Shown: positions 13,357 to 28,264 of the stretch, in pieces
Position numbering within the stretch: position 1 is the stretch's first letter
Layout of the letters: each line of letters starts with the position of its first letter
Assembly (NCBI GenBank): GCA_040901985.1
Contig: JBBDYC010000008.1
Span: 112,490 to 176,489 of the forward strand
Direction of reading: 5' to 3'
From: Gemmatimonadaceae bacterium
Lineage (GTDB): Bacteria; Gemmatimonadota; Gemmatimonadetes; Gemmatimonadales; Gemmatimonadaceae
DNA length: 64,000 nt
Notes under the pieces: model-generated
The model's database searches: none
Seen by the model: only the letters and a program-made list of their open reading frames with translations
Told to the model about the DNA's origin: nothing
Program-made: the position numbers and the translations under genes

Positions 13357-14523
13357 ATGAGCCGCAACCCGCTCTTCATCCTGACGGTCCTCTCGTTGCT
13401 CGTCGTGCTCTCCGAGTGGATCGTCCGGCGCACCGCGCTCCGCCACGTCGGGTCGGCGCTGGTCGTCATCATCCTCGGCGCCGTCGTGTCGAATCTGGGG
13501 CTCATCCCCACCAGTTCCACGCCCGATGCCCCGGTGCCCGTCTACGACGCGGTGTTCGGCGTCGTCGCGCCGATCGCGATTTTCTGGCTCCTGCTCGCCG
13601 TCAACCTGCGGGACGTGCTGAAGGCGGGGCTTCCCCTGATCGCACTCTTCGCGGTCGGCGCGCTGGGGACGATGCTCGGCGTCTTCGCCGGGATGGCGCT
13701 CGTGGACGGCGCCGAGCGAATCGGGCCGCTCTACAACGCCGTCGGCGGAATGTTCACCGGGACGTACATCGGCGGGAGCATCAACTTCAACGCGGTCGCG
13801 CTGGAGTACGGCGTGATGCGCGACGGCCTGCTGTATGGCGGCACGGTGGCGGTGGACAACGTCATCACGACGCTCTGGATTGCCGCGACGCTGGCGCTGC
13901 CACGCCTGTTGCTTCCGATTTGGCGTGGCGTGCGCCCCCGCCCGGACGGCGCGGCGGTCGCGGCGCCCATCATTGACGTGGCCGCCGAGATTGAGACGAT
14001 TGACCCGCGGAAGCTCGCGCTCGTCCTCGCGCTAGGCACCGGCGCGCTCCTGGTGTCCCGCGTGGCGGCCGACGCGTTGGCGCGTGCCGGCGCCAACGTG
14101 CCATCCATCCTGATCATCACCGTCCTCGCGCTCGCGCTGGCGCAGGTCCGCGCGGTGAGCGCGCTGCCGGGCTCGCGCGTGGCCGGGATGTACGCCGTCT
14201 ATCTCTTCCTCGCCGTGATCGGGGCGTTCTGCGACATCGGCGCGATGGCGGGGCTGGGCGCGCTCGGCGCGACCCTGTTGGTCTTTGCGCTGGTTACCGT
14301 GCTCGTGCACGGCGTGGTCACGTTCGGCGCGGCGTGGCTCTTCAAGCTGGATCTCGACGGCGCCGCCGTGGCGTCGCAGGCGAATGTCGGGGGCGCGACG
14401 TCGGCGCTGGCGCTGGCGAAGAGTCTTGGCCGCGAGGACCTGCTCCTGCCGGGAATCCTGCTCGGCTCGCTCGGGAATGCGATCGGGACATTCCTGGCGT
14501 TCCTGATGGCGCGGCTGCTGTGA
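13357..14523 (+). CDS. DUF819 family membrane protein
   Basis: GTYIGGSINF, ASQANVGG, GNAIGT motifs; many TMs. Confidence 0.85.
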   Translation: MSRNPLFILTVLSLLVVLSEWIVRRTALRHVGSALVVIILGAVVSNLGLIPTSSTPDAPVPVYDAVFGVVAPIAIFWLLLAVNLRDVLKAGLPLIALFAVGALGTMLGVFAGMALVDGAERIGPLYNAVGGMFTGTYIGGSINFNAVALEYGVMRDGLLYGGTVAVDNVITTLWIAATLALPRLLLPIWRGVRPRPDGAAVAAPIIDVAAEIETIDPRKLALVLALGTGALLVSRVAADALARAGANVPSILIITVLALALAQVRAVSALPGSRVAGMYAVYLFLAVIGAFCDIGAMAGLGALGATLLVFALVTVLVHGVVTFGAAWLFKLDLDGAAVASQANVGGATSALALAKSLGREDLLLPGILLGSLGNAIGTFLAFLMARLL

Positions 14524-14609
14524 GGGTGGGGGGCGGGCCGAGCATTGCCGGCTCGCCGATTGCGCGTCCATATTCGGCGGGCGTCATTCCGGATCATTCA
14601 GGAGGCACG

Positions 14610-15248
14610 ATGAAGCCGCTCAGGTTCAGTGTCATCGTCGGGGCGATCGCGCTCTTGGCCGCCGCATCGTCCACCGGCTGTCGGCGCGCGATCGTCATCG
14701 TGCCGCAGACGGAGCGCGGCTACACGGCGACCGACACGCTCTGGGGTCGCTACAAGGGCAACAACGTGCGGGTCACCTTTCGCTTCGACACGCTTTGGCG
14801 CCGGGACACCGTGACGCGCCTCGACACGCTCTGGCGCGCTGGCACGCGAACGCTCGTGCGAGTGGACACGCTGCTCGTGCTGCACGTGGATACCGTCGTG
14901 CGCCGGGACACCGTCCGGGTGACGGTGCGCGACACCATCCGGGTCACGGTGCGCGACACCATCCGGGTCACGGTGCGCGACACGGTGCGGCTGGCGGGCC
15001 GACGTCAGCTCTTCGTGCCGCCAGGTCAATACCCGCCCGACGGCCAGTGCCGGGTGTGGGTCCACGACCTTCCGCCGGGGCGGCAGGCGGCCGCGGCCCC
15101 GTGTAACGCGCTCGGCACGATTCCGGCCGGGGCGTTCATCCTGTTCCGTGGTGACGCGTGGGACTTTGACTACGACTGGGTGGAGGAGGCGCGTCGTGGC
15201 GCTGTGCCGCCGGAGATCGTCGCGCTCAAGCGGCGAGGCGGAAGATAG
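14610..15248 (+). CDS. Lipoprotein with (R)DT-periodic beta-rich repeats
   Basis: GGAGG-ATG 14610; lipobox-like STGC; RDT(V/I)RVTV repeats; C-terminal PPGQYPPDGQCRVW domain. Confidence 0.7.
   Translation: MKPLRFSVIVGAIALLAAASSTGCRRAIVIVPQTERGYTATDTLWGRYKGNNVRVTFRFDTLWRRDTVTRLDTLWRAGTRTLVRVDTLLVLHVDTVVRRDTVRVTVRDTIRVTVRDTIRVTVRDTVRLAGRRQLFVPPGQYPPDGQCRVWVHDLPPGRQAAAAPCNALGTIPAGAFILFRGDAWDFDYDWVEEARRGAVPPEIVALKRRGGR
14904..14990 (+). repeat. 24-bp tandem repeat (~3.6 copies) encoding RDTIRVTV
   Basis: cgcgacaccatccgggtcacggtg repeated. Confidence 0.9.
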
Positions 15249-15377
15249 CGGACTGACGGGGGGGGCACGACGCGCTTCCGTCGGCGGTTCGCCTACGGCG
15301 AATCTCCGACAGGCCGCGGTCGAACCCCCGATTGCGCGAGCGACCCCGATGTCCGAGCATGAGGACGGGAGCCCAGT

Positions 15378-16316
15378 ATGACACTCGTGCCTCCGAGTGA
15401 CCTCGACTTCGCGCTCGCTCCATTGCCGTCGGCGCGGACGCCGGAGTGGCGCACAATCCTCGTCGCCACCGACGGATTGCCCGACTCCGACGTCGCAGTG
15501 TTACTCGCGCAGACAGTCGCCGCGCGTTCGGGCGCGATGCTACACGCGATTGCAGTCTGCGACCGGCAGACGATGGTCTACGACCGGAGTGCGCCGGAGT
15601 TTGATGTACTGACGGGGTCGGTCGCCGCCGACGAGCGCGCCGCGGTCGTGACCGGGCAACTCGCCCGGCTGCTTCTCGCGGATGCCTGTCCGCTCGTGGT
15701 CCGCTACGGCGGCGTCGCCGAGGAGGTGCGGCGGCAGGCCAGCGACCTGCGCGCCGACCTCATCGTTGCGGGCCGGGGCCGGCATGGGTTGCTCGCGCGC
15801 CTGCGCGGAGAGGGACACGTCTTGCAGGTGATTCGCGCGGCGCCCTGTTCGGTGCTCGCCGTCGAGGGGGCAGCGGTGTTGCCGCGACGCGTCGTTGTCG
15901 GTATCGACTTCAGCCCACACGGCGCGGACGTTGCGCGCACCGCTGTGCGTCTCGCCGCGGACGAAGCGACGATTTATCTCATGCACGTGAAACCGGACCC
16001 GCCGTTTGGGATTCCACATCCCGGTCGCTGGTTGGAGTCGTACGAGGAGGGTGTCCGAGCTGGCCTCGAGCGGCTCCGGCAGCAGTTGGCGCTCCCGCCG
16101 TCCCGCGCGGTGGAAATCATTGTCGTTCACGGTCACCCCGGGGATGCGCTGGTCGCCTTCGCGCGATCCGCGCAGGCCGACCTGATTGCGGTCGGCCGAC
16201 ACGGGGCGGGATTCCTCGATCGGATGCTGATCGGAAGCGTGACCGCCCGCCTGGTGCATTCGGGAAGCTGCTCGCTCCTTGTCGTGCCGGCGGCGTTCTC
16301 CGACGTGCGGGCGTAA
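15378..16316 (+). CDS. Universal stress protein (tandem USP domains)
   Basis: ILVATDG...ADLIVAG and VVVGIDFS...ADLIAVGRHG...GSVTARLV. Confidence 0.9.
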   Translation: MTLVPPSDLDFALAPLPSARTPEWRTILVATDGLPDSDVAVLLAQTVAARSGAMLHAIAVCDRQTMVYDRSAPEFDVLTGSVAADERAAVVTGQLARLLLADACPLVVRYGGVAEEVRRQASDLRADLIVAGRGRHGLLARLRGEGHVLQVIRAAPCSVLAVEGAAVLPRRVVVGIDFSPHGADVARTAVRLAADEATIYLMHVKPDPPFGIPHPGRWLESYEEGVRAGLERLRQQLALPPSRAVEIIVVHGHPGDALVAFARSAQADLIAVGRHGAGFLDRMLIGSVTARLVHSGSCSLLVVPAAFSDVRA

Positions 16317-16323
16317 TCGGCAG

Positions 16324-17679
16324 TCAGAGCGCTGACGGATAGGTTTCCGGGAGCTCGTCCGCATCCAACTGCCAGGTCGGCGTACGTTCCAGCGGCTCCA
16401 CCGCGCGCGTGCGGTCGTGATGGAAGACGACGTCGAACTGGTCACTCAGGCGCGCGTGGTAGTAGTGGCTCATCCGTTCCGTCTCCGGTCGGTAGATGAC
16501 GCCAATGAAGCGCTCGAGCCGCGGTGAGCCGAGCGCTGCGCGCACGGCCGCGTGCTCCCTGAGGTCGAGGGCGAAGCGATCGATCCCCATCGCGTGGAAG
16601 AGCGCTTCGTAGCTTTCCGGAAGGGCCGGCCGCACGCGCATGCGCTGCGCCGGTGCGCCCCAGTCCGACGCGGCTGTCACGCTCCCTTCATAGGTCGTGA
16701 AGCCAACGAGTAGCGCGTCGCGGCCGTGCGCCTTGCGCACGAGGTGGCCAAGGTTGGTCTCGCCGCGTGCCGAGGCCTCGGTGGCACTCGCGTCACCGAG
16801 GTGCGAGTTGTGTGCCCAGACCACCACCCGGCTCGGCTCGATGCCGGGGCGGTGCCGGTCGAGGTGCGCCACGAGCTGTTCGAGCGTCTCCGCCATATGC
16901 GTGTCGCGGAGGTTCCAGGACGCGGCCCCGCCGTGGTACATCACGCGGTAGTAGCGTTCCGCCTGCACCACCACGCGCGCGTTCTGCTCGGCGTGAAAGA
17001 GCTGCTCGGCGGCGATGCGGTCGTCGAGCGCCGCGTATTCGGACGCCTTGGCCCGCAGCTCCACCAGTTGGCGCACCACCTCTGATTCACAGGACGCTTC
17101 GGAATCCACGAGGGTGGCGTAGCCATAATGTTGCGGATCCGACCCGTACCGCGTGAAGCAGTCGTACCGCCGGAGCGCGCGCAGAGCCGCTGCCGGGTCG
17201 ACGGTGCGCAGATAGGCCACCACGGCCTCGATGGAGGCGTGCAGGCTGTAGAGATCGAGTCCATAGAATCCGACCCGCCGTGCGGGCCGCGCGTCGTTGA
17301 ACGCGCGCAGCCAGCCCACGAAGTCGAGCACGTCGGCGTTGCGCCACATCCACTGCGGGAATCGCGCAAAGTCGGCCAGCGCCTCCTCGGCGTCGCCTAT
17401 CGACGGGTCGCCGCGTACAAAGCGGTTGACGCGATAGGCATGCGGCCAGTCGCCCTCGATCGCGACGGCGGAGAATCCCTGCTCGCGGATGAGGCGCTTG
17501 GTGAGTTCCGCCCGGATCCGGTAGAATTCGTGCGTGCCGTGCGATGCCTCGCCGATGAGCACAAAGCGGCACCCCTCGACACGCCGGAGCAGGGCATCAA
17601 AGTCGCTCGGCGCTCCGGTGAGACGCACCGCCGCCGCGCGGAGATCGTCGAGCGCGGTGCGGGCGAGTGACGAGTTCAT
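16324..17679 (-). CDS. Erythromycin esterase family protein
   Basis: GEASHGTHEFY, FPQWMWRN, WNLRDTHM, WAHNSHLGDA, ETYPSAL. Confidence 0.92.
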   Translation of the reverse strand: MNSSLARTALDDLRAAAVRLTGAPSDFDALLRRVEGCRFVLIGEASHGTHEFYRIRAELTKRLIREQGFSAVAIEGDWPHAYRVNRFVRGDPSIGDAEEALADFARFPQWMWRNADVLDFVGWLRAFNDARPARRVGFYGLDLYSLHASIEAVVAYLRTVDPAAALRALRRYDCFTRYGSDPQHYGYATLVDSEASCESEVVRQLVELRAKASEYAALDDRIAAEQLFHAEQNARVVVQAERYYRVMYHGGAASWNLRDTHMAETLEQLVAHLDRHRPGIEPSRVVVWAHNSHLGDASATEASARGETNLGHLVRKAHGRDALLVGFTTYEGSVTAASDWGAPAQRMRVRPALPESYEALFHAMGIDRFALDLREHAAVRAALGSPRLERFIGVIYRPETERMSHYYHARLSDQFDVVFHHDRTRAVEPLERTPTWQLDADELPETYPSAL

Positions 17680-17691
17680 GGAGACCGTCGC

Positions 17692-19074
17692 TCAGCGCGA
17701 CCTGGCCGGCAGGGCCGCCGCGTGGGGTGTCAGGTGCTCGGTGAACCAGTCACTCGCGAGCTGCGTAACCTTTGCCATCGAGTCCGGCTCCTCGAAGAGG
17801 TGGCCTGCGCCGGGGACGATCGCCAGTTCGGCGTGCGCGGCCCGCATGCGTTCGCGCGCGGTGCGGTTGAGCTGCAGCACGTCCCGATCGTCGCCACCCA
17901 CGATGAGCAGCGTCGGGGCCGTCACCGCCGCAAGCGACGGGCCGGCGAGGTCGGGACGTCCGCCACGCGACACGACGGCGTAAATGACCGAGCCGCGATC
18001 GGCGGCGGCGCTCAACGCGGCCGCAGCCCCGGTGCTCGCCCCGAAGTAGCCAATCGGTAGGGCATCGACCGCCTCGACCGTGCCGAGCCAGTCGGTGACG
18101 TCGACCAGGCGCTTCGCCAGGAATGGGATGTCGAATCGCAACTCCGCCGTCGTCCGATCAATCACGTCCTCGCGCGGGGTCAACAGGTCGAAAAGGAGCG
18201 TGGCGAAACCGTGCGCACGTAGCGCCGCCGCCACCTCGCGGTTGCGCGGACTCAGCCGACTGCTCCCGCTTCCGTGCGCGAAGACGACGAGGCCGACCGC
18301 GGGCCCTCGCGGCAGGTCGAGCTCACCGGTGAGCTCGCCCGACCGCAACGGAATCTGGACCGTGCGCGCGTCGGGACTCGAGGTCCGAGTCGTCGCCGGG
18401 CCCGATGCGTGGGGGTCCGCCTGGTCGAGGAGGGAGATGACCTCCTCGTCGGTCACCTGCGCGAAGTCACGGTACCAGACGCCGACCGCAAGGAACTCGG
18501 CGGGGGACTCCACGCACTCCACCTCGTCAGCGACGGATTGGAGGGCGTCGCGCGTGGCAGCGGCGATCACGGGCGCCGCCACGATTACGCGCGCGGGATG
18601 AAGCTGGCGCAGAGCGGCGATTGCCGAGAACATCGTCGCGCCAGTCGCGATGCCATCATCAACCAGCACGAGGATCTTCCCGGCGAGGTCGGCCGGGGGC
18701 CGGCCGCGGCGATATACCGCCTCACGGCGCGCGAGCTCGGCGGTCTCGCGACGGGTCACGGCATCTACGTGGTGGCGGGGGACCTCGTGGGCGGCGAGCA
18801 CCTCGGGGTTCATCCATCGCACACCGCCCGACGCGACCGCTCCCATCGCAAACTCCTCGTGCCCCGGCAGTCCAAGTTTACGGACGATGAACAGGTCAAG
18901 TGGTTGCCGGAGGGCTCGGGCGACCTCGAACGCAACGGGGACGCCGCCGCGCGGCAATGCCAGGATGACGACGTTCGACCGTCCCGTCAGGTGGCGCAGT
19001 CGCTCGGCGAGCTGCGTTCCCGCCTGGCGGCGGTCGTCGAACCGCGGGGACCCGTACCGAATCATGCTCCACAT
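17692..19074 (-). CDS. Phosphoribosyltransferase-dienelactone hydrolase fusion
   Basis: LPRGGVPVA, VDDGIATGAT (PRT); HGSGSSRLSPRN, GASTG, HLFEEP (hydrolase). Confidence 0.9.
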   Translation of the reverse strand: MWSMIRYGSPRFDDRRQAGTQLAERLRHLTGRSNVVILALPRGGVPVAFEVARALRQPLDLFIVRKLGLPGHEEFAMGAVASGGVRWMNPEVLAAHEVPRHHVDAVTRRETAELARREAVYRRGRPPADLAGKILVLVDDGIATGATMFSAIAALRQLHPARVIVAAPVIAAATRDALQSVADEVECVESPAEFLAVGVWYRDFAQVTDEEVISLLDQADPHASGPATTRTSSPDARTVQIPLRSGELTGELDLPRGPAVGLVVFAHGSGSSRLSPRNREVAAALRAHGFATLLFDLLTPREDVIDRTTAELRFDIPFLAKRLVDVTDWLGTVEAVDALPIGYFGASTGAAAALSAAADRGSVIYAVVSRGGRPDLAGPSLAAVTAPTLLIVGGDDRDVLQLNRTARERMRAAHAELAIVPGAGHLFEEPDSMAKVTQLASDWFTEHLTPHAAALPARSR

Positions 19075-19225
19075 CCGTCGACTGGTACTCTCAGTGTACG
19101 CCGCTGTCGTCCGGGGCGCAGTCGGCGTATTCCCGCACGTGGAATCGGCATTTCACCGACAGATTGCGCTGGGCGATGACCCCTCCTTGAAGGTGTACGG
19201 CGCCATCCTTGCATAGGAGGTTGAA

Positions 19226-19672
19226 ATGCTCGCCCGCGACATCATGACGCTTGAACCGGCCGTCGTCACGGCCACTGACACGGTGCCCGTGGCGGCACAG
19301 TTGATGCGCACCCGAGACGTCGGGATGTTGCCGGTCGTCGACGATCTCGTGCATCGGCGTCTCGTCGGTGTGCTCACCGACCGAGACATCGTCCTCCGGT
19401 ACGTCGCGCCGGAGCACGGCCGGCTGGCCAGCGTACGGGACCATATGACGCGCGAGCCGATGGTCACGGCCACCGCGACGAGCACCATCGCGGAAGTCGT
19501 CGCGAGGATGTCGCGGCACCAGGTGCGACGCCTGCCGGTCGTCGACGCGAACGATGCGGTGATTGGCGTGATCGCACAGGCCGACATCGCGCTCAAGGTG
19601 CGGCCGCACGACGCCGACCTGGTCGATCACCTCACCGAGGCGATCTCGCGGCCCGGCGCGCTGGTGCACTGA
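19226..19672 (+). CDS. CBS domain protein
   Basis: GGAGG-ATG; LPVV...GVLTDRDIV, QVRRLPVV...GVIAQADIA. Confidence 0.9.
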   Translation: MLARDIMTLEPAVVTATDTVPVAAQLMRTRDVGMLPVVDDLVHRRLVGVLTDRDIVLRYVAPEHGRLASVRDHMTREPMVTATATSTIAEVVARMSRHQVRRLPVVDANDAVIGVIAQADIALKVRPHDADLVDHLTEAISRPGALVH

Positions 19673-20140: not shown

Positions 20141-20968
20141 CTAGAATCCCTTGCGTGCCTCTGCTTCGCTGGGGAATACGGCGAGAATCGTGGAGAAGCC
20201 GGAGATGTCGAACACCTCCCGGACCGTGTCGTTGAGGCCGAACGTGCGCAGGGCGCCTCCCGTCGCGGTCATCCGCTTGGCGGCGCCGAGCAGGACGCGG
20301 AGTCCAGCGCTGCTGATGTAGTCAAGCGCGGTGAAGTCCACCGCGAGCTTCCGCGCGCCACCGGCGAGGATCGCGTCGAGGACCTGCTGGGCCTCGGGCG
20401 ACGTGACGCTGTCGAGATTGCCGGCCAAGGCCACGATTGTGACGTCATCCTGCGTGCGCGTCGTGATCTCCATCAACCTCCCTCCGCGATGACCGTCTGC
20501 CACCCCACCTGCCAGGAGCTTCACCAGGACCACGACATTGCTGTCGCCGCGGCGGTGGTAGCTGACCTCGTCCACCAATCGCCGGACCAGATGAATGCCG
20601 AGTCCGCCGATCGGCCGCTCCACCAAGGACAGCTTGGTATCGGGCGCGGCCCTGCCGACCGGGTCGAACGGCTTGCCATTGTCGGTAAGCGTGACCGTCA
20701 ACCGATCCGATTGTAGATCCACGTCAATCGTCACCTCGCCGTCCTCGCGCTCGGCCAATCCGTACGTCACGGTATTGGCCAGCAGCTCGTCCAGCACGAC
20801 GTTCATACTGCGCCGGATCGCCGCCGGCAAGGCGTGCGCATCCGTGAAGTCCGCAAAGGTCGCATTGACCTTGGCGACCTCACCGGGATCCCTGCCGATT
20901 GACATCCGGAAGCCTGCTGGCATCTCGCCCTCCGGCGTGCCGCTCAATGACGCTGGCCACGCCGTCAT
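20141..20968 (-). CDS. RsbW-like anti-sigma kinase fused in frame to a STAS anti-anti-sigma domain
   Basis: DELLANTVTYG, DNGKPFDP, GGLGIHLV (HATPase) then LDYISSAGLRVLL (STAS); internal SD plus ATG at 20473. Confidence 0.85.
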   Translation of the reverse strand: MTAWPASLSGTPEGEMPAGFRMSIGRDPGEVAKVNATFADFTDAHALPAAIRRSMNVVLDELLANTVTYGLAEREDGEVTIDVDLQSDRLTVTLTDNGKPFDPVGRAAPDTKLSLVERPIGGLGIHLVRRLVDEVSYHRRGDSNVVVLVKLLAGGVADGHRGGRLMEITTRTQDDVTIVALAGNLDSVTSPEAQQVLDAILAGGARKLAVDFTALDYISSAGLRVLLGAAKRMTATGGALRTFGLNDTVREVFDISGFSTILAVFPSEAEARKGF

Positions 20969-21036
20969 CTGTCAACCTCCGGTCCCCTGTCCGGCATTTG
21001 CCGAGGGGGCGCTGGCGGGTGCACGTTTCCCCGGCT

Positions 21037-21047
21037 CCCCCCCCCCC
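21037..21047. repeat. C11 homopolymer in divergent promoter region
   Basis: ggct-C11-tcg between the rsbW-STAS and ECF sigma starts. Confidence 0.85.
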
Positions 21048-21114
21048 TCGCCACCGCCTCGGGCCCCCACCCGTCCGATGGACGTTTCCAACCTTTGGCG
21101 CCCTGGACTGTACT

Positions 21115-21672
21115 TTGGTCGAGTCCCCCGCTGCGGCTACGGAAGACGAACAGGACCGAGCGCTCGTCCGGAGGTGCCTGGATGGCGAACGGAACGCGGC
21201 CAGCGATCTGGTGGATCGCTATCAGCGTCGCCTGTTCAATGTCGCGTTCCGGATGCTCGGCAACGTGCAGGACGCGGAGGACGTCACCCAGACGGTGTTC
21301 GGCAATGCGTTCGTCTCGCTGGGGAGCTTCGACCCGAAGTACCGGTTCTTCAGCTGGATCTATCGGATGGCGGTCAACGAGTCGTTGAACACGCTCAAGC
21401 GCCGGAAGCGGATGGTCACGTTGGAGGACCACCTGGCCATCCCGGCGCCGGGCGGCGGAACTGATGATGCATTGGAGGCGGAGGATCGAGTGGAAAAGGC
21501 GCTGATGGACCTCAAGCCTGACGATCGGGCCGTGGTGGTGCTCCGGCACTTCGTGTCGTTCTCCTACGAGGAGATGGCCGACGTGCTGGAGGTGCCCGTC
21601 CGTACCGTCAAGTCGCGCCTCTTCACGGCACGGGAACGGCTGCGCCAGGCGTTGCTCGGGCGGGGCGCCTGA
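21115..21672 (+). CDS. ECF sigma factor
   Basis: DAEDVTQTVF, FFSWIYRMAVN, SYEEMADVLEVPVRTVKSRLFTAR; TTG start uncertain. Confidence 0.92.
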   Translation: MVESPAAATEDEQDRALVRRCLDGERNAASDLVDRYQRRLFNVAFRMLGNVQDAEDVTQTVFGNAFVSLGSFDPKYRFFSWIYRMAVNESLNTLKRRKRMVTLEDHLAIPAPGGGTDDALEAEDRVEKALMDLKPDDRAVVVLRHFVSFSYEEMADVLEVPVRTVKSRLFTARERLRQALLGRGA

Positions 21673-21674
21673 CG

Positions 21675-22931
21675 ATGCTGAGCGCGGACCAGATTGAGCT
21701 GATCCATCGGGAGATCGATGGTGAGAACACGCCGGAGGCGAGTGCCGCGTTCCGGTCGTTGCTGGAGAGGGACCAGGAAGCGCGCGCCCTCGCGGCGGAC
21801 CTGCGGGACCTTGCCGCGCTCCTTGGCCGGGAACAGGAACGCGCGCCGCCGCCGCATCTCCGGCCAACGATTCTCGAGGCGCTGGCACTGCAAACGCGAG
21901 CATCACCGAGGACTGCATCGGCATGGATGGCCCCGCAGGCGATCGTTCAACGGCTTGTTTCCCAGTGGCGAGTTTCCCTAAGGCGAATGGAGGAGGCGAT
22001 GATTACGAAGAAGGCGCTGATCGTCGGGACCACCGTGGTGGCGATAGTCGCCGTCATCGGCGGCGTCGTGGTCGGGTACCCACCGAGCGGCGACGAAGCC
22101 GGCACGATCGGCGGGGTCCAGCAGGCGGCACGGTATCGCGGACGGCCGATGACCGAGGCCGATGTGACCATCGCGAACCCCGAGATCCAGGTGCTGTTCC
22201 AGAACCACGATGTCCTGACCCTGGTCAAGAGCGACGTCTTCCGCTCGGCGATGCGGAACGACGCGTTCAGGGAGTTGCAGTCCAGCGAGGCCTTCCGCCA
22301 ACTGATGGCGAGCGATGCGTATCGCCAGTTGATGGCGAGCGATGCCTACCGCCAGTTGATGGCGAGCGAGGCCTATCGCGAGCTGGCGTCGAGCGAGGCC
22401 TATCGCGAACTGGCGTCGAGCGAGGCCTACCGCGAGCTGATGTCCAGTGACGCCTATCGCTCGTTGCAGTCCAACGAGGCGTACCGCGCGCTGCAGGCGC
22501 AGGACGCGTTCCGCAACGTGCAGTCCAGCGAGGCGATGCGCGCGCTCCAGGCCAACGAGGCCTACCGGTCGTTGCAGGCGAATGAGGCGTACCGCGCGGC
22601 GATGGCCAGCGAGGCCTTCCGCGCCGTGCAGGCCAACGATGCGTTCCGCGCCGTGCAGGCCAACGAGGCGTATCGTGCGGTGATGGCGAACGACGCGTTC
22701 CGTGCGGTGATGGCGAACGACGCGTTCCGTGCGGTGATGGCGAACGACGCGTACCGCGCGGCAATGGCCAGCGATGCGTTCCGTTCCGTGATGGCGAACG
22801 ATGCGTTCCGCGCGGTGATGGCGAACGATGCGTACCGGCAGCTCCAGTCGGCCGAGATGTTCCGCGCACTGTCGAGGAGCGCACAGATGTCCGAGGCGTT
22901 CATGAGCCAGGCGATGCGCGTCGTGCAGTAA
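21675..22931 (+). CDS. Putative transmembrane anti-sigma factor with extracytoplasmic 9-aa repeat array
   Basis: Immediately after the ECF gene; N-terminal anti-sigma-like helical domain (IDGE...PP motif, no Cys); one TM; 22 units of [SN][DE]A[FY]Rxxxx. Confidence 0.7.
   Translation: MLSADQIELIHREIDGENTPEASAAFRSLLERDQEARALAADLRDLAALLGREQERAPPPHLRPTILEALALQTRASPRTASAWMAPQAIVQRLVSQWRVSLRRMEEAMITKKALIVGTTVVAIVAVIGGVVVGYPPSGDEAGTIGGVQQAARYRGRPMTEADVTIANPEIQVLFQNHDVLTLVKSDVFRSAMRNDAFRELQSSEAFRQLMASDAYRQLMASDAYRQLMASEAYRELASSEAYRELASSEAYRELMSSDAYRSLQSNEAYRALQAQDAFRNVQSSEAMRALQANEAYRSLQANEAYRAAMASEAFRAVQANDAFRAVQANEAYRAVMANDAFRAVMANDAFRAVMANDAYRAAMASDAFRSVMANDAFRAVMANDAYRQLQSAEMFRALSRSAQMSEAFMSQAMRVVQ
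22257..22850 (+). repeat. 27-bp in-frame tandem repeat, 22 units
   Basis: e.g. aacgacgcgttccgtgcggtgatggcg; units NDAFRELQS to NDAYRQLQS. Confidence 0.95.
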
Positions 22932-22952
22932 CGGCACCAGCAGCAGGGTTCG

Positions 22953-23002
22953 GCGCTGGCCCCGGCTCCCTCTAACGGGAGTCGGGGCCAGCGCGTACTT
23001 TC
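22953..23002 (+). terminator. Strong intra-operon hairpin (terminator or mRNA stabiliser)
   Basis: gcgctggccccggctccc-tctaac-gggagtcggggccagcgc (18 bp, one G-U) followed by gtactttt. Confidence 0.7.
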
Positions 23003-23010
23003 CGGCCACT

Positions 23011-26007
23011 GTGGCCAAGAATCAACTGCGAGTCGCTAGGGGCGCCGGCTGCGGGCGCGTCCGGGGGGTCCTGGCCCTCCTCGTTTGCGTCGGCGCGGTT
23101 GCGCCGTCCGGTCTTGCCGCGCAGTTCCAGGCGGTTGAGACCGCCAGTATGCGGCTGGTGTACACCTCGCCGCTCCAGTCCTACCTCGTGCCGCAGGTGA
23201 CCGCGAGCTTCGAGAATGCGCTGCGGTTCCACCGCCAGCTCTTCGACTATGCGCCGGGAGGCCGGATCAACGTGCTGATGCACGACCTCTGGCACTACGG
23301 CAACGCGGGGGCGCGTCCGGTGCCGGAGAACCACGTCACCATAGGGATCGCGCCGTACGGACACGACTACGAGTCGGCGCCCGCTCCCGAACGAATGGCG
23401 TCGTCGATGAACCACGAGCTGGCGCACATCGTCACCACCGACAAAGCGACCCGGTCCGACCGGTTCTTCCGCTCGATCTTCTTCGGCAAGGTCACGCCAA
23501 ACGCGGAAGTGCCGCCCTCGATGCTCTACAGCTACCTGACCACGCCGCGCTGGTACGCGCCGCGCTGGTACCTCGAGGGAATCGCCACCTATCTCGAGAC
23601 GTGGATGAACGGCGGGCTGGGGCGTGCCATCGGTCCCTACGACGAGATGGTCTTCCGCACCCTCGTCCGCGACAGCCTCACGATGTACGACGTCGTCGGG
23701 CTCGAATCCGAGGGCACGACAATCGATTTCCAGGTGGGCGTGAACTCGTATCTCTACGGGACGCGGTTCATCAGCTATCTCGCGCTCCAGTACGGAAACG
23801 ACTCCTTGCTGGGGTGGGTCAATCGGTCCGAGGGCAGCAAGCGGTACTTCTCGTCGCAGTTCAGGAACGTGTTCGGGAGGTCGCTCGCGGACGAGTGGTC
23901 GCGATGGATTGACTGGGAGCGCGAGTGGCAGCGAGACAACCTGGCGGCGATTCAGCGGCACCCGACCACCGTTGCGCGACCGCTCACCAATCGGGTGCTC
24001 GGATCGGTGTCCCGCGCGTACTACGACCCGGCAAAGGGCAGCGTCCTCGTGGCCGTTCGCTATCCGGGCCAGGAAGCCCACATCGCCAGCATTGACGTCG
24101 CGTCCGGACGGTTCACGCGGGTCGGCGACATCACCGCCGCGGGGGGTCTGTCCGTGACGTCGCTGGTGTTCGATGCGGCGACGCGGACGCTCTTCTACAC
24201 CACCAACAACGCGGACTATCGTCACATACTCTCGATGGACCTCGAGACGGGCCGCTCCACGGTCCTGCTCAAGAACGGGCGCATCGGCGACCTCGCCTTC
24301 AACGCGGCGGACCGTTCCTTGTGGGGCGTCCGGCACGACAACGGGTTCTCGACGCTGGTGCGCCTTCCGCATCCGTACAGCGAGTGGCATCAGGTCCACA
24401 CGCTGCCGTACGGCAGGGACCTCTTCGACCTGGACGTCTCGCCGGACGGCACGGCCCTCATCGGGTCGATGTCGGAGATAAGCGGGGACACTCGCCTCGT
24501 GCGGATGAACATCGCCACGCTTCTTTCGGGCGATGCCGCGCACGAGGTGCTCTTCGAGTTCGGCCAGTGGTCGCCGTCGAACTTCGTCTTCTCCCAGGAC
24601 GGGCGGTACATCTTCGGCTCGTCCTACTACTCCGGCGTCTCCAACATCTTCCGGTACGAAGTCACGACGCGGGAGATGGAGGCCGTGACCAATGCGGAGA
24701 CGGGCTTCTTCAAGCCGTTGCCCATCTCCGATGACTCCCTCGTCGTCTTCGCCTACTCGGGCACCGGATTCGTGCCCTCGATGATCCCGAACGCGGTGAC
24801 GGATAGCGTGAGCGCGATTCAATTCCTCGGCAACGAGATCGCCGAGCGACGGACCGAGGTGCAGTCGTGGATGCCGCCGCCCGTCTCCGACATCAACGTT
24901 GATGCGCTGACGACGGCGACCGGCACCTACAGCACGGCGCGGAATTTCAAGTTGGACAACGCGTACCCGGTCGTGGAGGGATACGAGGATGCGCTGGGCA
25001 ACACTGCCGTCGCCGGCGGCGTGCGGCTCAACTTCTCGGACCGGATCGGAGCGACGGGGCTCGAGTTCACCGCGTCGTACTCTCCCGACGAGGACCTCGA
25101 CGAGTACGAGCACCTTCACCTGCGCGCGGTCTTCCGCCACTGGAACTGGAAGGTCTCGGCGGCGCTCAATCGGGCCGACTTCTACGACCTCGTCGGCCCG
25201 ACGAAGGTGAGCCGTCGTGGCTATTCGCTGGCGCTCCAGTACCAGGGCAATGTCTTCTACGATGGCCCGCGGAGCCTGGGCTACACGTTGCAGGCGGCGG
25301 GGTACGGCGACCTGGCGATCGTGCCGGAGTTCCAGAATGTCGCGGCGTCGTTCGACAAGCTCGCGTCGTTCTCCGGCGACCTCGCGTACAAGTCCCTCCG
25401 GCGGTCGCTTGGCGCCATTGACGACGAGCTCGGTGCGACGTGGGGAGCGGGGATTCGCGGCAACTACGTGAACGCGACGCTGCACCCACGCGTGAGCATG
25501 GATGCGTCGAGGGGATTCCTCCTGCCGCTGGATCACTCGTCGCTCTGGTTCCGCGCCTCGGCGGGGTCGGCGCTCGGCCCCGACCGGGCCGACCCATTCG
25601 CGCGGTTCTACTTCGGTGGGTTCGCCAACAACTGGGTGGACTACCGGGCAATCAAGCAGTTTCGGAACACCGAGGCCTTCCCGGGCCTCGACATCAACGA
25701 GATTGGCGGCGCCACGTACGCCAAGGCGCAGGTGGAGTGGATGTCACCGCCCCTCCGCTTTCGGAGCGTCGGCATCCCGAGCGCGTATTTCCGCTGGGCC
25801 GGACTGTCGCTGTTCGCGAGTGGGCTTGCCACCGACGTGGATGACGCGACGGCCAGGCGTACCTTCACAAGCGCGGGGGCGCAGGTGGACCTCCGACTCG
25901 TCACGATCTCCCATCTCGAGTCCACCTTCTCCGTCGGCTACGGCGTGGCGAAGGGGCAGGGCGTCCCGCTCAGCAACGCCCTGATGGTTTCGTTCAAGAT
26001 CATGTGA
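23011..26007 (+). CDS. Outer-membrane protein: gluzincin-like peptidase domain, TolB-like beta-propeller, C-terminal beta-barrel
   Basis: Signal peptide; NHELAH and WYLEGIATYLE; SPDG/SQDGRY propeller motifs; C-terminal amphipathic strands. Confidence 0.7.
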   Translation: MAKNQLRVARGAGCGRVRGVLALLVCVGAVAPSGLAAQFQAVETASMRLVYTSPLQSYLVPQVTASFENALRFHRQLFDYAPGGRINVLMHDLWHYGNAGARPVPENHVTIGIAPYGHDYESAPAPERMASSMNHELAHIVTTDKATRSDRFFRSIFFGKVTPNAEVPPSMLYSYLTTPRWYAPRWYLEGIATYLETWMNGGLGRAIGPYDEMVFRTLVRDSLTMYDVVGLESEGTTIDFQVGVNSYLYGTRFISYLALQYGNDSLLGWVNRSEGSKRYFSSQFRNVFGRSLADEWSRWIDWEREWQRDNLAAIQRHPTTVARPLTNRVLGSVSRAYYDPAKGSVLVAVRYPGQEAHIASIDVASGRFTRVGDITAAGGLSVTSLVFDAATRTLFYTTNNADYRHILSMDLETGRSTVLLKNGRIGDLAFNAADRSLWGVRHDNGFSTLVRLPHPYSEWHQVHTLPYGRDLFDLDVSPDGTALIGSMSEISGDTRLVRMNIATLLSGDAAHEVLFEFGQWSPSNFVFSQDGRYIFGSSYYSGVSNIFRYEVTTREMEAVTNAETGFFKPLPISDDSLVVFAYSGTGFVPSMIPNAVTDSVSAIQFLGNEIAERRTEVQSWMPPPVSDINVDALTTATGTYSTARNFKLDNAYPVVEGYEDALGNTAVAGGVRLNFSDRIGATGLEFTASYSPDEDLDEYEHLHLRAVFRHWNWKVSAALNRADFYDLVGPTKVSRRGYSLALQYQGNVFYDGPRSLGYTLQAAGYGDLAIVPEFQNVAASFDKLASFSGDLAYKSLRRSLGAIDDELGATWGAGIRGNYVNATLHPRVSMDASRGFLLPLDHSSLWFRASAGSALGPDRADPFARFYFGGFANNWVDYRAIKQFRNTEAFPGLDINEIGGATYAKAQVEWMSPPLRFRSVGIPSAYFRWAGLSLFASGLATDVDDATARRTFTSAGAQVDLRLVTISHLESTFSVGYGVAKGQGVPLSNALMVSFKIM

Positions 26008-27020
26008 CGACCGTCGTCGCGCTCGCCGTCAGCGTCTTGCCGATCTTCCTGTTCCTCGGCGCGCTGGTGCTCATTGACAGCTACAAGCTTGTCGCGCTGC
26101 GGGCGGTCCTGCTCTCGGTCGCCGCCGGCGTCGCCGCAGGCCTTGCCAGCTACGCGGTGAATGTCTGGCTCCGGCCGGCGCTCGGGCTGGCCCCGTCGCA
26201 ATACTCGATGTACGTCGCACCCGTCGTCGAGGAGACGCTCAAGGCCGCGTATGTCGTGTACCTGCTGTCGAGAAGCAAGGTCGGGTTCGTTGTGGACGCC
26301 GCCATCTATGGATTCGGCATCGGCACCGGCTTCGCCTTTCTGGAGAACCTCTACTATCTGCTCGTGAGTCCCGACGCCGCGATCTGGACCTGGATCGTGC
26401 GGGGCTTCGGCACCGCGGTGATGCACGGCGGCGCCACCGCCATCCTCGCGATGGTCGCCAAGACGCTGCACAATCGCCTCGATGGCTTCAGGCCGTACCT
26501 CCTGTTGCCGGGTCTCCTCGTGGCCGTGGTCCTCCACTCGCTGTACAACCAGTTCCTCCTGCAACCGCTGATCGCGACGGCGTTGATCGTGTTGGTCTTT
26601 CCCTATGTCAGCATCGCCATCTTCCAGCAGAGCGAGCGCGACACGAAATCGTGGTTGGGCAGCGGGTTCGACACCGACCAGGAGCTGCTCAGGGCCATTC
26701 GCACGGGGCAGGTGGCGGCGACGCCGGCGGGGAAGTATCTCCTGACCGTACGCAGTCGCTTCTCCCCGGAGGTCATCGTGGATATGCTGTGCCTCCTCCG
26801 ACTGCGCGCCGAGCTGGGCATCCGCGCCAAGGGCATCCTGATGCTGCGCGAGGCCGGATTCGATCCCGAGCCGGACCCCGCCGTGAAGCGCACGTTCGAG
26901 GAACTGCGGTATCTGGAACGGAGCATCGGGAAAACCGGGATGCTCTCCCTGCATCCGTTCCTCCACACCAGCACGCGCGACCTCTGGCAACTCAATCTGC
27001 TTGACGAGATGCAGGGATGA
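26004..27020 (+). CDS. prsW: PrsW-family glutamic intramembrane protease
   Basis: APVVEETLK, GFAFLEN, MHG, LHSLYN. Confidence 0.88.
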   Translation: MTTVVALAVSVLPIFLFLGALVLIDSYKLVALRAVLLSVAAGVAAGLASYAVNVWLRPALGLAPSQYSMYVAPVVEETLKAAYVVYLLSRSKVGFVVDAAIYGFGIGTGFAFLENLYYLLVSPDAAIWTWIVRGFGTAVMHGGATAILAMVAKTLHNRLDGFRPYLLLPGLLVAVVLHSLYNQFLLQPLIATALIVLVFPYVSIAIFQQSERDTKSWLGSGFDTDQELLRAIRTGQVAATPAGKYLLTVRSRFSPEVIVDMLCLLRLRAELGIRAKGILMLREAGFDPEPDPAVKRTFEELRYLERSIGKTGMLSLHPFLHTSTRDLWQLNLLDEMQG

Positions 27021-28264
27021 GCGACTCCCCCACGCCGTCGAGGGGCACCCAGACCACGCTCCGCGCCCTGCCAAAGGCGCTGGTCGTCGGCCGGGCCGGC
27101 GCGGATGCCGCAGCCCTCGTCCGTAGCGTCGAGGCAGAAGGGTATCTCGTGTTCGCGGCTGTCCAGGCCGACGACGCACTGCAGCGACTTCGCGCCGCAC
27201 GGTTCGACTTGGTGTTGCTGGATGCGGACGTACCCGCGATGGGCGGGCCGCAGTTCGTCGAGACGCTGCGGAGTGATGCCGAGCTGGCGAGCGTTCCCGT
27301 CCTCGTGATCTCGGCGGCGGACGATACGGATGCCATCGAGCGGTGCCTCGAGAAGGGCGCCGACGACTATCTCCCCAAGGTGTTTGGTCCGGCCGTGCTG
27401 CGGGCCCGCGTCAGCGCGGCGCTGGACCGTCGGCGCCTACGGGACAACGTGAAGCTGCGGCGCGAGATGGATGTCGCGCGGAACATCCAGCGGGACTTTC
27501 TCCCCGAGTCACTCCCCGCCGTGCGCGGCGTGCAACTCGAGGCCGCATTGCATCCGGCGCGTCAGGTCTCCGGCGACTTTTACGACGCGTTCACCCTGGC
27601 GCCCTCCGGCAACCTCGTCCTGGTCGTTGGGGATGTGTGCGACAAGGGGGTCGGCGCGGCGTTGTTCATGGCCCTCTTCCGCAGTCTCATCCGTGCGTCC
27701 GCGGATCCAGTGGGTGGCGGCGCGATCCAGATGATTGGTGGCCGGCGCACGCTCGTGATGCAGTCGCTGGAGGCCGCCACGCCGGCCGACCTGTTGACGC
27801 GGGTCGCGGGTTTTACCAACAACTACATCGCGAGGTTGCACGGACGCACCAATATGTTCGCCACCGTCTTTCTGGCGGTGCTCGATCCGGCCTATGGCAC
27901 GCTCAACTATGTCAACGCCGGCCACGAGCCGGCGCTCGTGATCGCCCCGGACGGGACGATGCGGGAACTGCGACCGACTGGTCCGGCGCTCGGGATGATG
28001 CCGGATTCGGTGTTCACGGCGGTTGGGGGAACGCTCGAGAGCGGAGAGACGCTCTTTGCGTTCACGGACGGATTGGCCGAGGCGCGGAGCCCGACCGGCG
28101 AGGTGTACGGCAGCGAGCGGTTGCGGCAGGTGGTGCGCTCGCACGCCAGCGGATCGGCATCGGAGCTCGTGACGGGCGTCATTGATGCGCTCAAGGCGTT
28201 CACGCGGCAGGCCGAGCCGCACGATGACCTGACCTTGCTTGCGGCGAAACGCACGAGCGGGTGA
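27017..28264 (+). CDS. Response-regulator receiver fused to PP2C/SpoIIE (RsbU-like) phosphatase
   Basis: DLVLLD, GADDYLPK; GDFYD, GDVCDKG, FTDG, HDDLT. Confidence 0.92.
   Translation: MSDSPTPSRGTQTTLRALPKALVVGRAGADAAALVRSVEAEGYLVFAAVQADDALQRLRAARFDLVLLDADVPAMGGPQFVETLRSDAELASVPVLVISAADDTDAIERCLEKGADDYLPKVFGPAVLRARVSAALDRRRLRDNVKLRREMDVARNIQRDFLPESLPAVRGVQLEAALHPARQVSGDFYDAFTLAPSGNLVLVVGDVCDKGVGAALFMALFRSLIRASADPVGGGAIQMIGGRRTLVMQSLEAATPADLLTRVAGFTNNYIARLHGRTNMFATVFLAVLDPAYGTLNYVNAGHEPALVIAPDGTMRELRPTGPALGMMPDSVFTAVGGTLESGETLFAFTDGLAEARSPTGEVYGSERLRQVVRSHASGSASELVTGVIDALKAFTRQAEPHDDLTLLAAKRTSG

Follow-up and report, generated by a model that had tools for sequence, protein, structure and literature searches.

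Why is an extracytoplasmic function (ECF) sigma factor encoded beside a membrane-anchored repeat protein, an outer-membrane peptidase and a PrsW-family protease, and which of these proteins controls which? The question is raised by positions 20141..28264 of a 64,000-nucleotide stretch of a Gemmatimonadaceae genome (contig JBBDYC010000008.1), termed the window. An initial annotation listed here an ECF sigma, a transmembrane (TM) repeat protein, an outer-membrane protein (OMP), PrsW, a REC-PP2C protein and an RsbW-STAS gene. This gene content stands, as a check of open reading frames (ORFs) finds all six present, family scans agree, and the 4-nt overlaps of OMP with PrsW and of PrsW with REC-PP2C are both confirmed in the sequence. 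The locus is real and widespread and reads as an undescribed variant of ECF control of the PrsW type, with a predicted pair of rod and barrel at its centre. For the repeat protein, the better reading is that of a regulated barrel partner to which an inhibitor domain has been added repeatedly. The genes are as follows.

20141..20473, minus strand: STAS anti-anti-sigma domain (PF01740), with its own Shine-Dalgarno (SD) sequence and ATG 20473, in frame with RsbW here
20474..20923, minus strand: RsbW-type kinase/anti-sigma (PF13581), likely starting at ATG 20923 with GGAGG; the ORF opens at 20968
21115..21672, plus strand: ECF sigma factor (sigma70 r2/r4_2), with a conserved TTG start at 21115 and no SD
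21675..22931, plus strand: P0003, 418 aa, a zinc-free anti-sigma-like domain (about residues 1-75) fused to an anchored repeat protein (from Met109)
23011..26007, plus strand: P0004, 998 aa, a gluzincin-type peptidase with a TolB-like propeller and a 16-strand Omp85-like barrel
26004..27020, plus strand: PrsW-family membrane protease (PF13367 over cut-off)
27017..28264, plus strand: PP2C phosphatase with a degenerate receiver domain (REC and SpoIIE Pfam models both over cut-off)

The reading preferred here, which we hold to have about an even chance of being correct, is a self-regulating envelope machine in which a rod-barrel pair, a PrsW cut and ECF feedback act together. The helical-repeat protein, anchored in the inner membrane, would bind the periplasmic propeller of the peptidase-bearing Omp85-like barrel. 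PrsW would cut both this protein and the anti-sigma at a common Gly-Thr motif just outside the membrane, the two being separate PrsW substrates in the presumed ancestral layout. Cleavage of the anti-sigma by PrsW, then by RseP, would free the ECF sigma. The freed sigma would transcribe only the repeat gene, OMP, PrsW and PP2C, sparing its own gene because the promoter appears to start past the sigma start codon and recurs before the repeat gene. Abundant repeat protein would compete for PrsW and thereby damp the loop. In this genome, a deletion would have grafted the inhibitor domain onto the repeat gene with an internal start kept; both a long regulatory form and a short form would be made, and one PrsW cut in the fusion would free rod and sigma factor together. 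RsbW, STAS and PP2C would tune the switch from the cytoplasm.

That these genes belong together is strongly borne out in genome and metagenome loci alike. Among genome loci, the repeat gene precedes the OMP gene in 52 of 54 (manual count), the two misses beginning within the OMP gene, and PrsW lies downstream of the OMP in all 43 of 43 whose contig runs past it (manual count). In 80 metagenome loci, with each gene counted over the loci long enough to judge it, a repeat core stands before the barrel gene in 38/39 and PrsW after it in 63/68; ECF is present in 27/30, STAS (25/30) and RsbW (22/30) lie upstream, and PP2C is found in 5/11. The closest relatives are nearly all named Gemmatimonadota, and the majority of the observed carriers are uncultured. 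A search at 1e-30 through 301 genomes of the phylum to which a Balneolaceae genome belongs gave an OMP match in 27, and the closer loci of this set mostly carry RsbW, STAS, ECF, anti-sigma, repeat gene, OMP and PrsW on one strand. Sequence comparison thus indicates that the locus is real and conserved across Gemmatimonadota and other diderm lineages. The module is patchy: a near-type OMP occurs in 13 of 61 relatives, this genome included (manual count), and the repeat core in 11 of 301 phylum genomes. None of ten flanking genes recurs among 54 related loci, so these are rejected as members and the borders of the module are those of the noted locus. Distant OMP homologs had no module gene beside them in 32 loci, with flanks of mostly ~1.5 kb. 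Of five genomes tested, four have distant OMPs without the repeat core; the fifth, whose near-type OMP stands alone, carries two repeat genes at another site. In genome G341, two tandem repeat-family genes (G341:C2:1457240-1458745) are unlinked from its lone near-type OMP gene (L148).

The initial annotation called P0003 a repeat anti-sigma. An inhibitor-like domain is indeed fused to it here, but comparison across loci indicates that in the ancestral state the repeat protein had a gene to itself, driven by an ECF-type promoter, and was an output and not an anti-sigma. The 104 loci in which both OMP and repeat core occur divide into 60 with the fusion, 27 with a separate anti-sigma, 12 without an inhibitor-domain match and 5 at a contig edge. 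The separate anti-sigmas are mostly ~250-270 aa with their own TM and periplasmic domain; in those 27 loci, the inhibitor domain is missing from the repeat protein, as is the docking segment from the anti-sigma. The putative anti-sigma follows the ECF gene at +1 and has a single TM, and among atlas neighbours of an unfused homolog zf-HC2 is found in 11% of members. The N-terminal domain of P0003 matches NF052375 below cut-off (E 1.4e-7), its anti-sigma match being sub-threshold. Within Gemmatimonadota, locus L095 is unfused, and its repeat gene begins at the Met equivalent to Met109. Fused and separate status switches 6 times on an OMP tree of 87 of the 104 rows, partial or duplicate OMPs being left out; the count omits 11 rows without an inhibitor-domain match, a class that includes the Gemmatimonadota loci L060, L067 and L090. 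These three have shortened inhibitor domains and look fused by eye. Fusion by deletion would be the simpler direction, because going from fused to separate would require both a further domain and another promoter to arise. The parts of the fused gene and its downstream spacer can be laid out as follows.

21989..22001, plus strand: internal SD (GGAGGAGG) and ATG 21999, the likely start of a 310-aa form without the inhibitor domain
22017..22073, plus strand: single TM helix or signal anchor, residues 115-133, hydropathy 2.73
22098..22211, plus strand: conserved segment of residues 142-179 with the Gly143-Thr144 motif, the predicted OMP-binding part; G invariant, T/Y near-invariant
22257..22877, plus strand: ~23 nine-residue repeats, each predicted to form one short helix, giving a solenoid rod; predicted local distance difference test (pLDDT) ~90
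22953..22994, plus strand: 18-bp hairpin between repeat gene and OMP gene, probably an attenuator or mRNA stabiliser

ATG 21999 matches the start of the free repeat gene in L095 and L096. Under a fixed rule, an SD precedes the internal Met in 40 of 50 fusions of the Gemmatimonadota clade and in 8 of 9 others, against 126 of 1349 internal control ATGs; a looser count (48/49 vs 129/675) is inflated, as it took the best of several starts, and the fixed-rule count is relied on. The internal SD is encoded by differing residues (MEE, TEE, IGG, EGA), which points to selection on the RNA. Since it is kept in fusions, two products are likely, the short one without the inhibitor domain.

The nine-residue array and single TM helix described earlier are both present. 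Self-identity at period 9 is 65%, against at most 0.18 at non-multiples of 9, and the array, which begins at residue 195, counts ~23 units. Modelling gives the short repeat protein as a solenoid with one helix of 7-8 residues per repeat, the conserved segment being disordered when modelled alone. The model has no Foldseek match at E<=0.001. A likeness to STI1/DP is a lead only, with PF17830 in 5 of 42 members and atlas scores of at most 0.82, and Pfam matches of the repeats to Plasmodium_HRP, BACK and LemA are rejected as compositional. The family forms 1520 clusters at 50% identity and combines a constant N-terminal segment with a hypervariable tail; among 111 long tails, 77 are non-periodic and 29 have period 9. 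Of 104 loci, 52 have a stem of at least 10 bp after the repeat gene, compared to 25 of 1040 shuffles, and such a hairpin is consistent with rod in excess over barrel.

The regulatory elements upstream are three.

20970..20975, minus strand: TTGACA -35-like element, likely a housekeeping promoter for rsbW-STAS, recurring in many of 43 intergenic regions
20998..21027, plus strand: conserved TTGCC...TGCACGTT element from a consensus of 43 intergenic regions, likely the housekeeping promoter of the ECF operon
21087..21112, plus strand: ECF-type promoter CCAAC-yTTT-N12-TGTA, with a predicted +1 near 21123, past the sigma start codon

The ECF sigma consists of the sigma2 and sigma4 regions only, and its best NCBIfam match, SigW, is below cut-off. 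Of 81 loci, 75 have the ECF-type promoter where the ECF gene starts (50/56 fused, 25/25 separate); 4 further fused loci have it between ECF and anti-sigma. Ahead of the repeat gene, a second copy is found in 15 of 27 separate loci as against 0 of 59 fused ones. With the window's site excluded from training, a promoter matrix gives one strong site in the genome, scoring 31.6; the next scores 13.7, and shuffled maxima are 15.4-19.2. In the B. subtilis promoter type AAC-nTTTT/CGTA, the T-tract lies at -29 to -26 (PMC5758882; papers cited here by such numbers are drawn on for the parts covered), which would place the +1 in the window thirty bases past the promoter C. In 73 of 78 loci, the in-frame start of the ECF gene is 21-27 nt after the AAC/C of the promoter; only 3 of 78 offer an alternative start at 28-44 bases (both manual counts). 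An ECF-driven message is therefore predicted to lack the sigma start codon and to serve the genes further down; alternatively, the promoter could be leaderless and unusually spaced. With one ECF-type promoter in the genome and its predicted +1 past the sigma start, rod, barrel and PrsW look like the output. A scan for sigma70 promoters and terminators found nothing, and the TTGCC element was missed by the same scan. In line with the earlier view that the combination is not recognisable as a described ECF group, a term search of the main text and part of the supplement of PMC7826278 found no group with matching context or promoter. ECF25 has overlapping taxa but GGAAC/GTC promoters (Casas-Pastor 2021, PMC7826278).

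The step before transcription would be proteolysis. PrsW retains its motifs EE..K, F...EN and H..[YF]N in 40 of 40 sequences each, with the equivalog NF033739 below cut-off, and an M50 (RseP-type) protease is present in the genome. The motif G[TS][ILMV] follows the TM in 24 of 25 separate anti-sigmas, compared to 21 of 143 control windows, and the Gly-Thr motif stands at the matching place in 128 of 150 representatives of the repeat family. Two otherwise unrelated periplasmic regions with a common membrane-proximal motif, co-encoded with PrsW, suggest a common cleavage or recognition site, and PrsW is likely to cut both the anti-sigma and the repeat protein. Apart from PF13367, PrsW also has a conserved C-terminal region of ~130 aa (window 26610-27020), a candidate docking site for STAS or RsbW.

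The product of the 998-aa gene was described earlier as a protein with an HELAH...E motif, propeller and barrel, and a 64-sequence alignment and an AlphaFold2 model bear this out. HELAH and the downstream E are invariant in the alignment (H98, E99, H102 and E152, mature numbering). The model (pLDDT 91.5; predicted template-modelling score, pTM, 0.89) consists of a peptidase-like domain, a propeller, a helical linker and 16 barrel strands, the last a manual count of DSSP output, with no POTRA domain. Its propeller aligns with TolB (1c5k; Z 22.3, root-mean-square deviation (rmsd) 3.0, 240 aligned) and the model with BamA (8xnb; Z 19.4, rmsd 4.0, 294 aligned). P0004 has no Pfam match, and a PDB sequence search with the OMP gave no match and no like complex. 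Elsewhere in the genome is a distant 969-aa OMP paralog (G000:C1:121748-124657) without adjoining module genes; similar paralogs are common in the genus.

In the complex model, residues 142-179 of P0003 dock on the propeller and linker of the OMP, with a score of 0.85 against 0.00 for the best control. Of solved pairs, 116 of 157 reach the score mark, as against 2 of 215 for mismatched ones; the runs agree in at least 53% of contacts, and partner pLDDT is at least 65. The model supports binding of rod and OMP, with the zinc ligands outside the predicted interface. Thus the earlier suggestion that the OMP acts on the repeat protein is retained as to contact, but the predicted contact is made by the segment before the repeats on the propeller, not by the repeats in the active site. 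Because only ~10 residues separate the docking segment from the membrane, the rod probably either docks after its release or signals by docking that the envelope is narrow.

Such a contact could also serve sensing from the outside in, the model of the initial annotation, where the OMP senses substrate or damage and clips or releases the tethered repeat protein, exposing it to PrsW and freeing the ECF sigma. The predicted direct contact and intact zinc site would suit this, repeated fusion would couple sigma release to the fate of the repeat protein, and hypervariable tails could sense varied cues. We regard it as improbable, though a serious contender: in 27 of the 104 loci, neither the repeat protein carries an inhibitor domain nor the anti-sigma a docking segment, the zinc ligands lie away from the predicted interface, and the ECF's only predicted target is its own operon, with no separate response genes evident.

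The make-up of the repeat family raises a further explanation, in which the locus is a route for export or display. PrsW would be a private signal peptidase, the freed N-terminal segment would target the barrel, the zinc domain would trim, the rod would be displayed or released, and the ECF sigma would gauge the flux. The constant N-terminal segment with hypervariable tails in 1520 clusters, the Omp85-like barrel, the tandem copies in G341, and the high rod output implied by a strong SD and downstream hairpin fit this route, and PrsW-dependent toxin export has been proposed (PMC3482391). It is an unlikely one, given that the barrel has no POTRA domain, a folded helical solenoid would be unusual cargo, the repeated fusion of the inhibitor domain fits a regulatory role, and no toxin or enzyme domain was found in the repeat-family tails examined. 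A broader envelope pathway would join elements of these proposals and is offered tentatively, as possible but improbable. In it, PrsW would serve as a dedicated peptidase releasing a family of anchored, hypervariable rods that numbers over 1,500, whose freed N-terminal tag docks the POTRA-less Omp85 peptidase barrel for processing, display or export; an ECF monitor, its promoter overlapping its own start codon, would induce the machine and never itself, and the anti-sigma would have been repeatedly grafted onto the cargo with a second start kept.

Partner switching of the RsbU/V/W type belongs with sigmaB. The locus resembles it in having a HATPase_c_2 kinase, a STAS domain with the Ser motif and PP2C, but differs in that no SigB-type sigma is over cut-off, the receiver is degenerate, and the input domain varies among loci. 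The divergent RsbW-STAS gene of the initial annotation is in frame here, while the two are separate genes in 29 of 43 relatives; the fusion is thus rejected as a defining trait. The case for a phospho-switch as a second input is weakened by the degenerate receiver. Kinase, STAS and PP2C motifs are intact (RsbW E...N 41/42 and GG.G 42/42; STAS phospho-Ser motif 43/43; four PP2C motifs, each 36/36), but the REC of the window lacks the acidic pocket after strand 1, as do 30 of the 32 RECs of related modules (manual count), REC itself is absent in 6 of 38 PP2C-bearing loci, and REC is rejected as a phospho-input.

One might suppose that the RsbW, STAS and PP2C genes are the main control of the ECF sigma, through RsbW binding the sigma or STAS binding the anti-sigma, with proteolysis secondary. 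STAS and RsbW lie upstream in 25 and 22 of 30 metagenome loci, catalytic motifs are intact, and no SigB/F/G-type sigma is over cut-off in this 99.97% complete genome, where the best TIGR02980 score is 121 bits against a cut-off of 234. This explanation is nevertheless very improbable: these genes are absent from several intact loci (e.g. L217, L219), REC is degenerate, and PP2C is present in only 5 of 11 long metagenome loci. The genome also has a second PP2C/RsbW/STAS cluster on C9 (G000:C9:28415-30776) and, by our own reading, a 253-aa FliA/WhiG-like (group-3-like) sigma on C17 (C17:168455-169216). That the RsbW of the locus is the only one of the genome is rejected, owing to the second set on C9.

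Several points weigh against the self-regulating machine. The loci are kin to each other, so their counts are not independent, and the six fusion switches are read from an unrooted FastTree tree. Of 68 metagenome loci, 5 lack PrsW, and L141 lacks it too while retaining the ECF, the fusion and the OMP; PrsW is thus not always local. The likely identity of the anti-sigma is drawn from position and sub-threshold hidden Markov model matches, and Gly-Thr is a candidate PrsW site by position and sharing only. The promoter-to-start geometry is taken from B. subtilis. Interface residues are not more specific to repeat-linked OMPs, as 1684 and 1035 of 2000 random sets score as high, and the docking groove is conserved too in distant OMPs without a repeat gene.

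In cell-surface signalling by FecA/FecR/FecI, an outer-membrane protein contacts an inner-membrane anti-sigma fusion, proteolysis frees the ECF sigma, and its main target is the outer-membrane component. The present locus would share these traits, with a predicted contact between an OMP and an anchored anti-sigma fusion, a putative proteolytic release and an ECF sigma whose predicted target includes the outer-membrane component. Its barrel, however, is Omp85-like with a peptidase and not TonB-dependent, the contact segment adjoins the membrane, and the partner is often without an inhibitor domain.

The likeness to sigmaW/RsiW/PrsW/RasP of B. subtilis includes an ECF sigma with a candidate single-TM anti-sigma at +1, the PrsW family and a site-2 protease in the genome (PMC10202637), as well as an AAC-T-tract-N-(C/T)GTA promoter (PMC5758882). 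The differences are that the host is diderm, PrsW shares its locus with the gene of an Omp85-like peptidase and that of another anchored protein, the predicted regulon is one operon, the inhibitor domain lacks zinc ligands, and the promoter apparently excludes the sigma's own start. A WD40-like Omp85 subfamily with a TolB-like propeller and Omp85 barrel has been catalogued (Heinz and Lithgow 2014, PMC4104836), a row of Table S3 naming TolB and aminopeptidase as best matches. That study regards the subfamily as resembling a BamA-BamB fusion; its main text has 0 mentions of PrsW, and the parts covered give no partner or ECF context. By description, P0004 shares this architecture (propeller, 16-strand barrel), and here a specific binding partner is predicted. 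PrsW has been proposed to release exported domains and is found fused to a toxin (Zhang et al. 2012, PMC3482391, in the part covered), whereas here PrsW has a gene of its own and a toxin domain is not seen. A literature search found no description of the module, Omp85 and PrsW together returning toxin papers only. New here are the anti-sigma/repeat fusion with a likely internal start, the common Gly-Thr motif, the predicted docking segment and a promoter predicted to skip the sigma start.

A catalogued but unstudied Omp85 subfamily thereby gains a predicted partner and binding site, and PrsW-type site-1 proteolysis would extend to diderms with a candidate cleavage motif. Two unusual regulatory devices are suggested: an ECF promoter that skips the start of its own gene, and recurrent anti-sigma fusions in which an internal start is kept.

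Some loci depart from the common layout. Genome G063 has two divergent repeat gene-OMP-PrsW copies (L134, L096) with no ECF match near either, and in L218 the OMP is accompanied by divergent PrsW, RsbW and STAS genes and by a motif resembling the promoter, whereas the repeat core gives no match. A record titled Ramlibacter (L099) carries the whole module, with an OMP 77% identical to that of the window, through either a binning error or transfer. A plasmid match search for the locus found none. Ser/Thr kinase genes neighbour the module at L098:3031-6124, L138:250-3237 and L142:13886-16444; the kinase of L098 has a TPR-like C-terminus, and an extra STAS also lies beside that module. In the window, the upstream genes at 13357-19672 encode what we take, by their motifs, to be a membrane protein, a tandem universal-stress protein, an erythromycin-esterase-like protein, a phosphoribosyltransferase-hydrolase fusion and a CBS protein, and they are not conserved together with the module. 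Within the same region, the ORF at 14334-15248 bears short tandem DTIRVTVR-like repeats.

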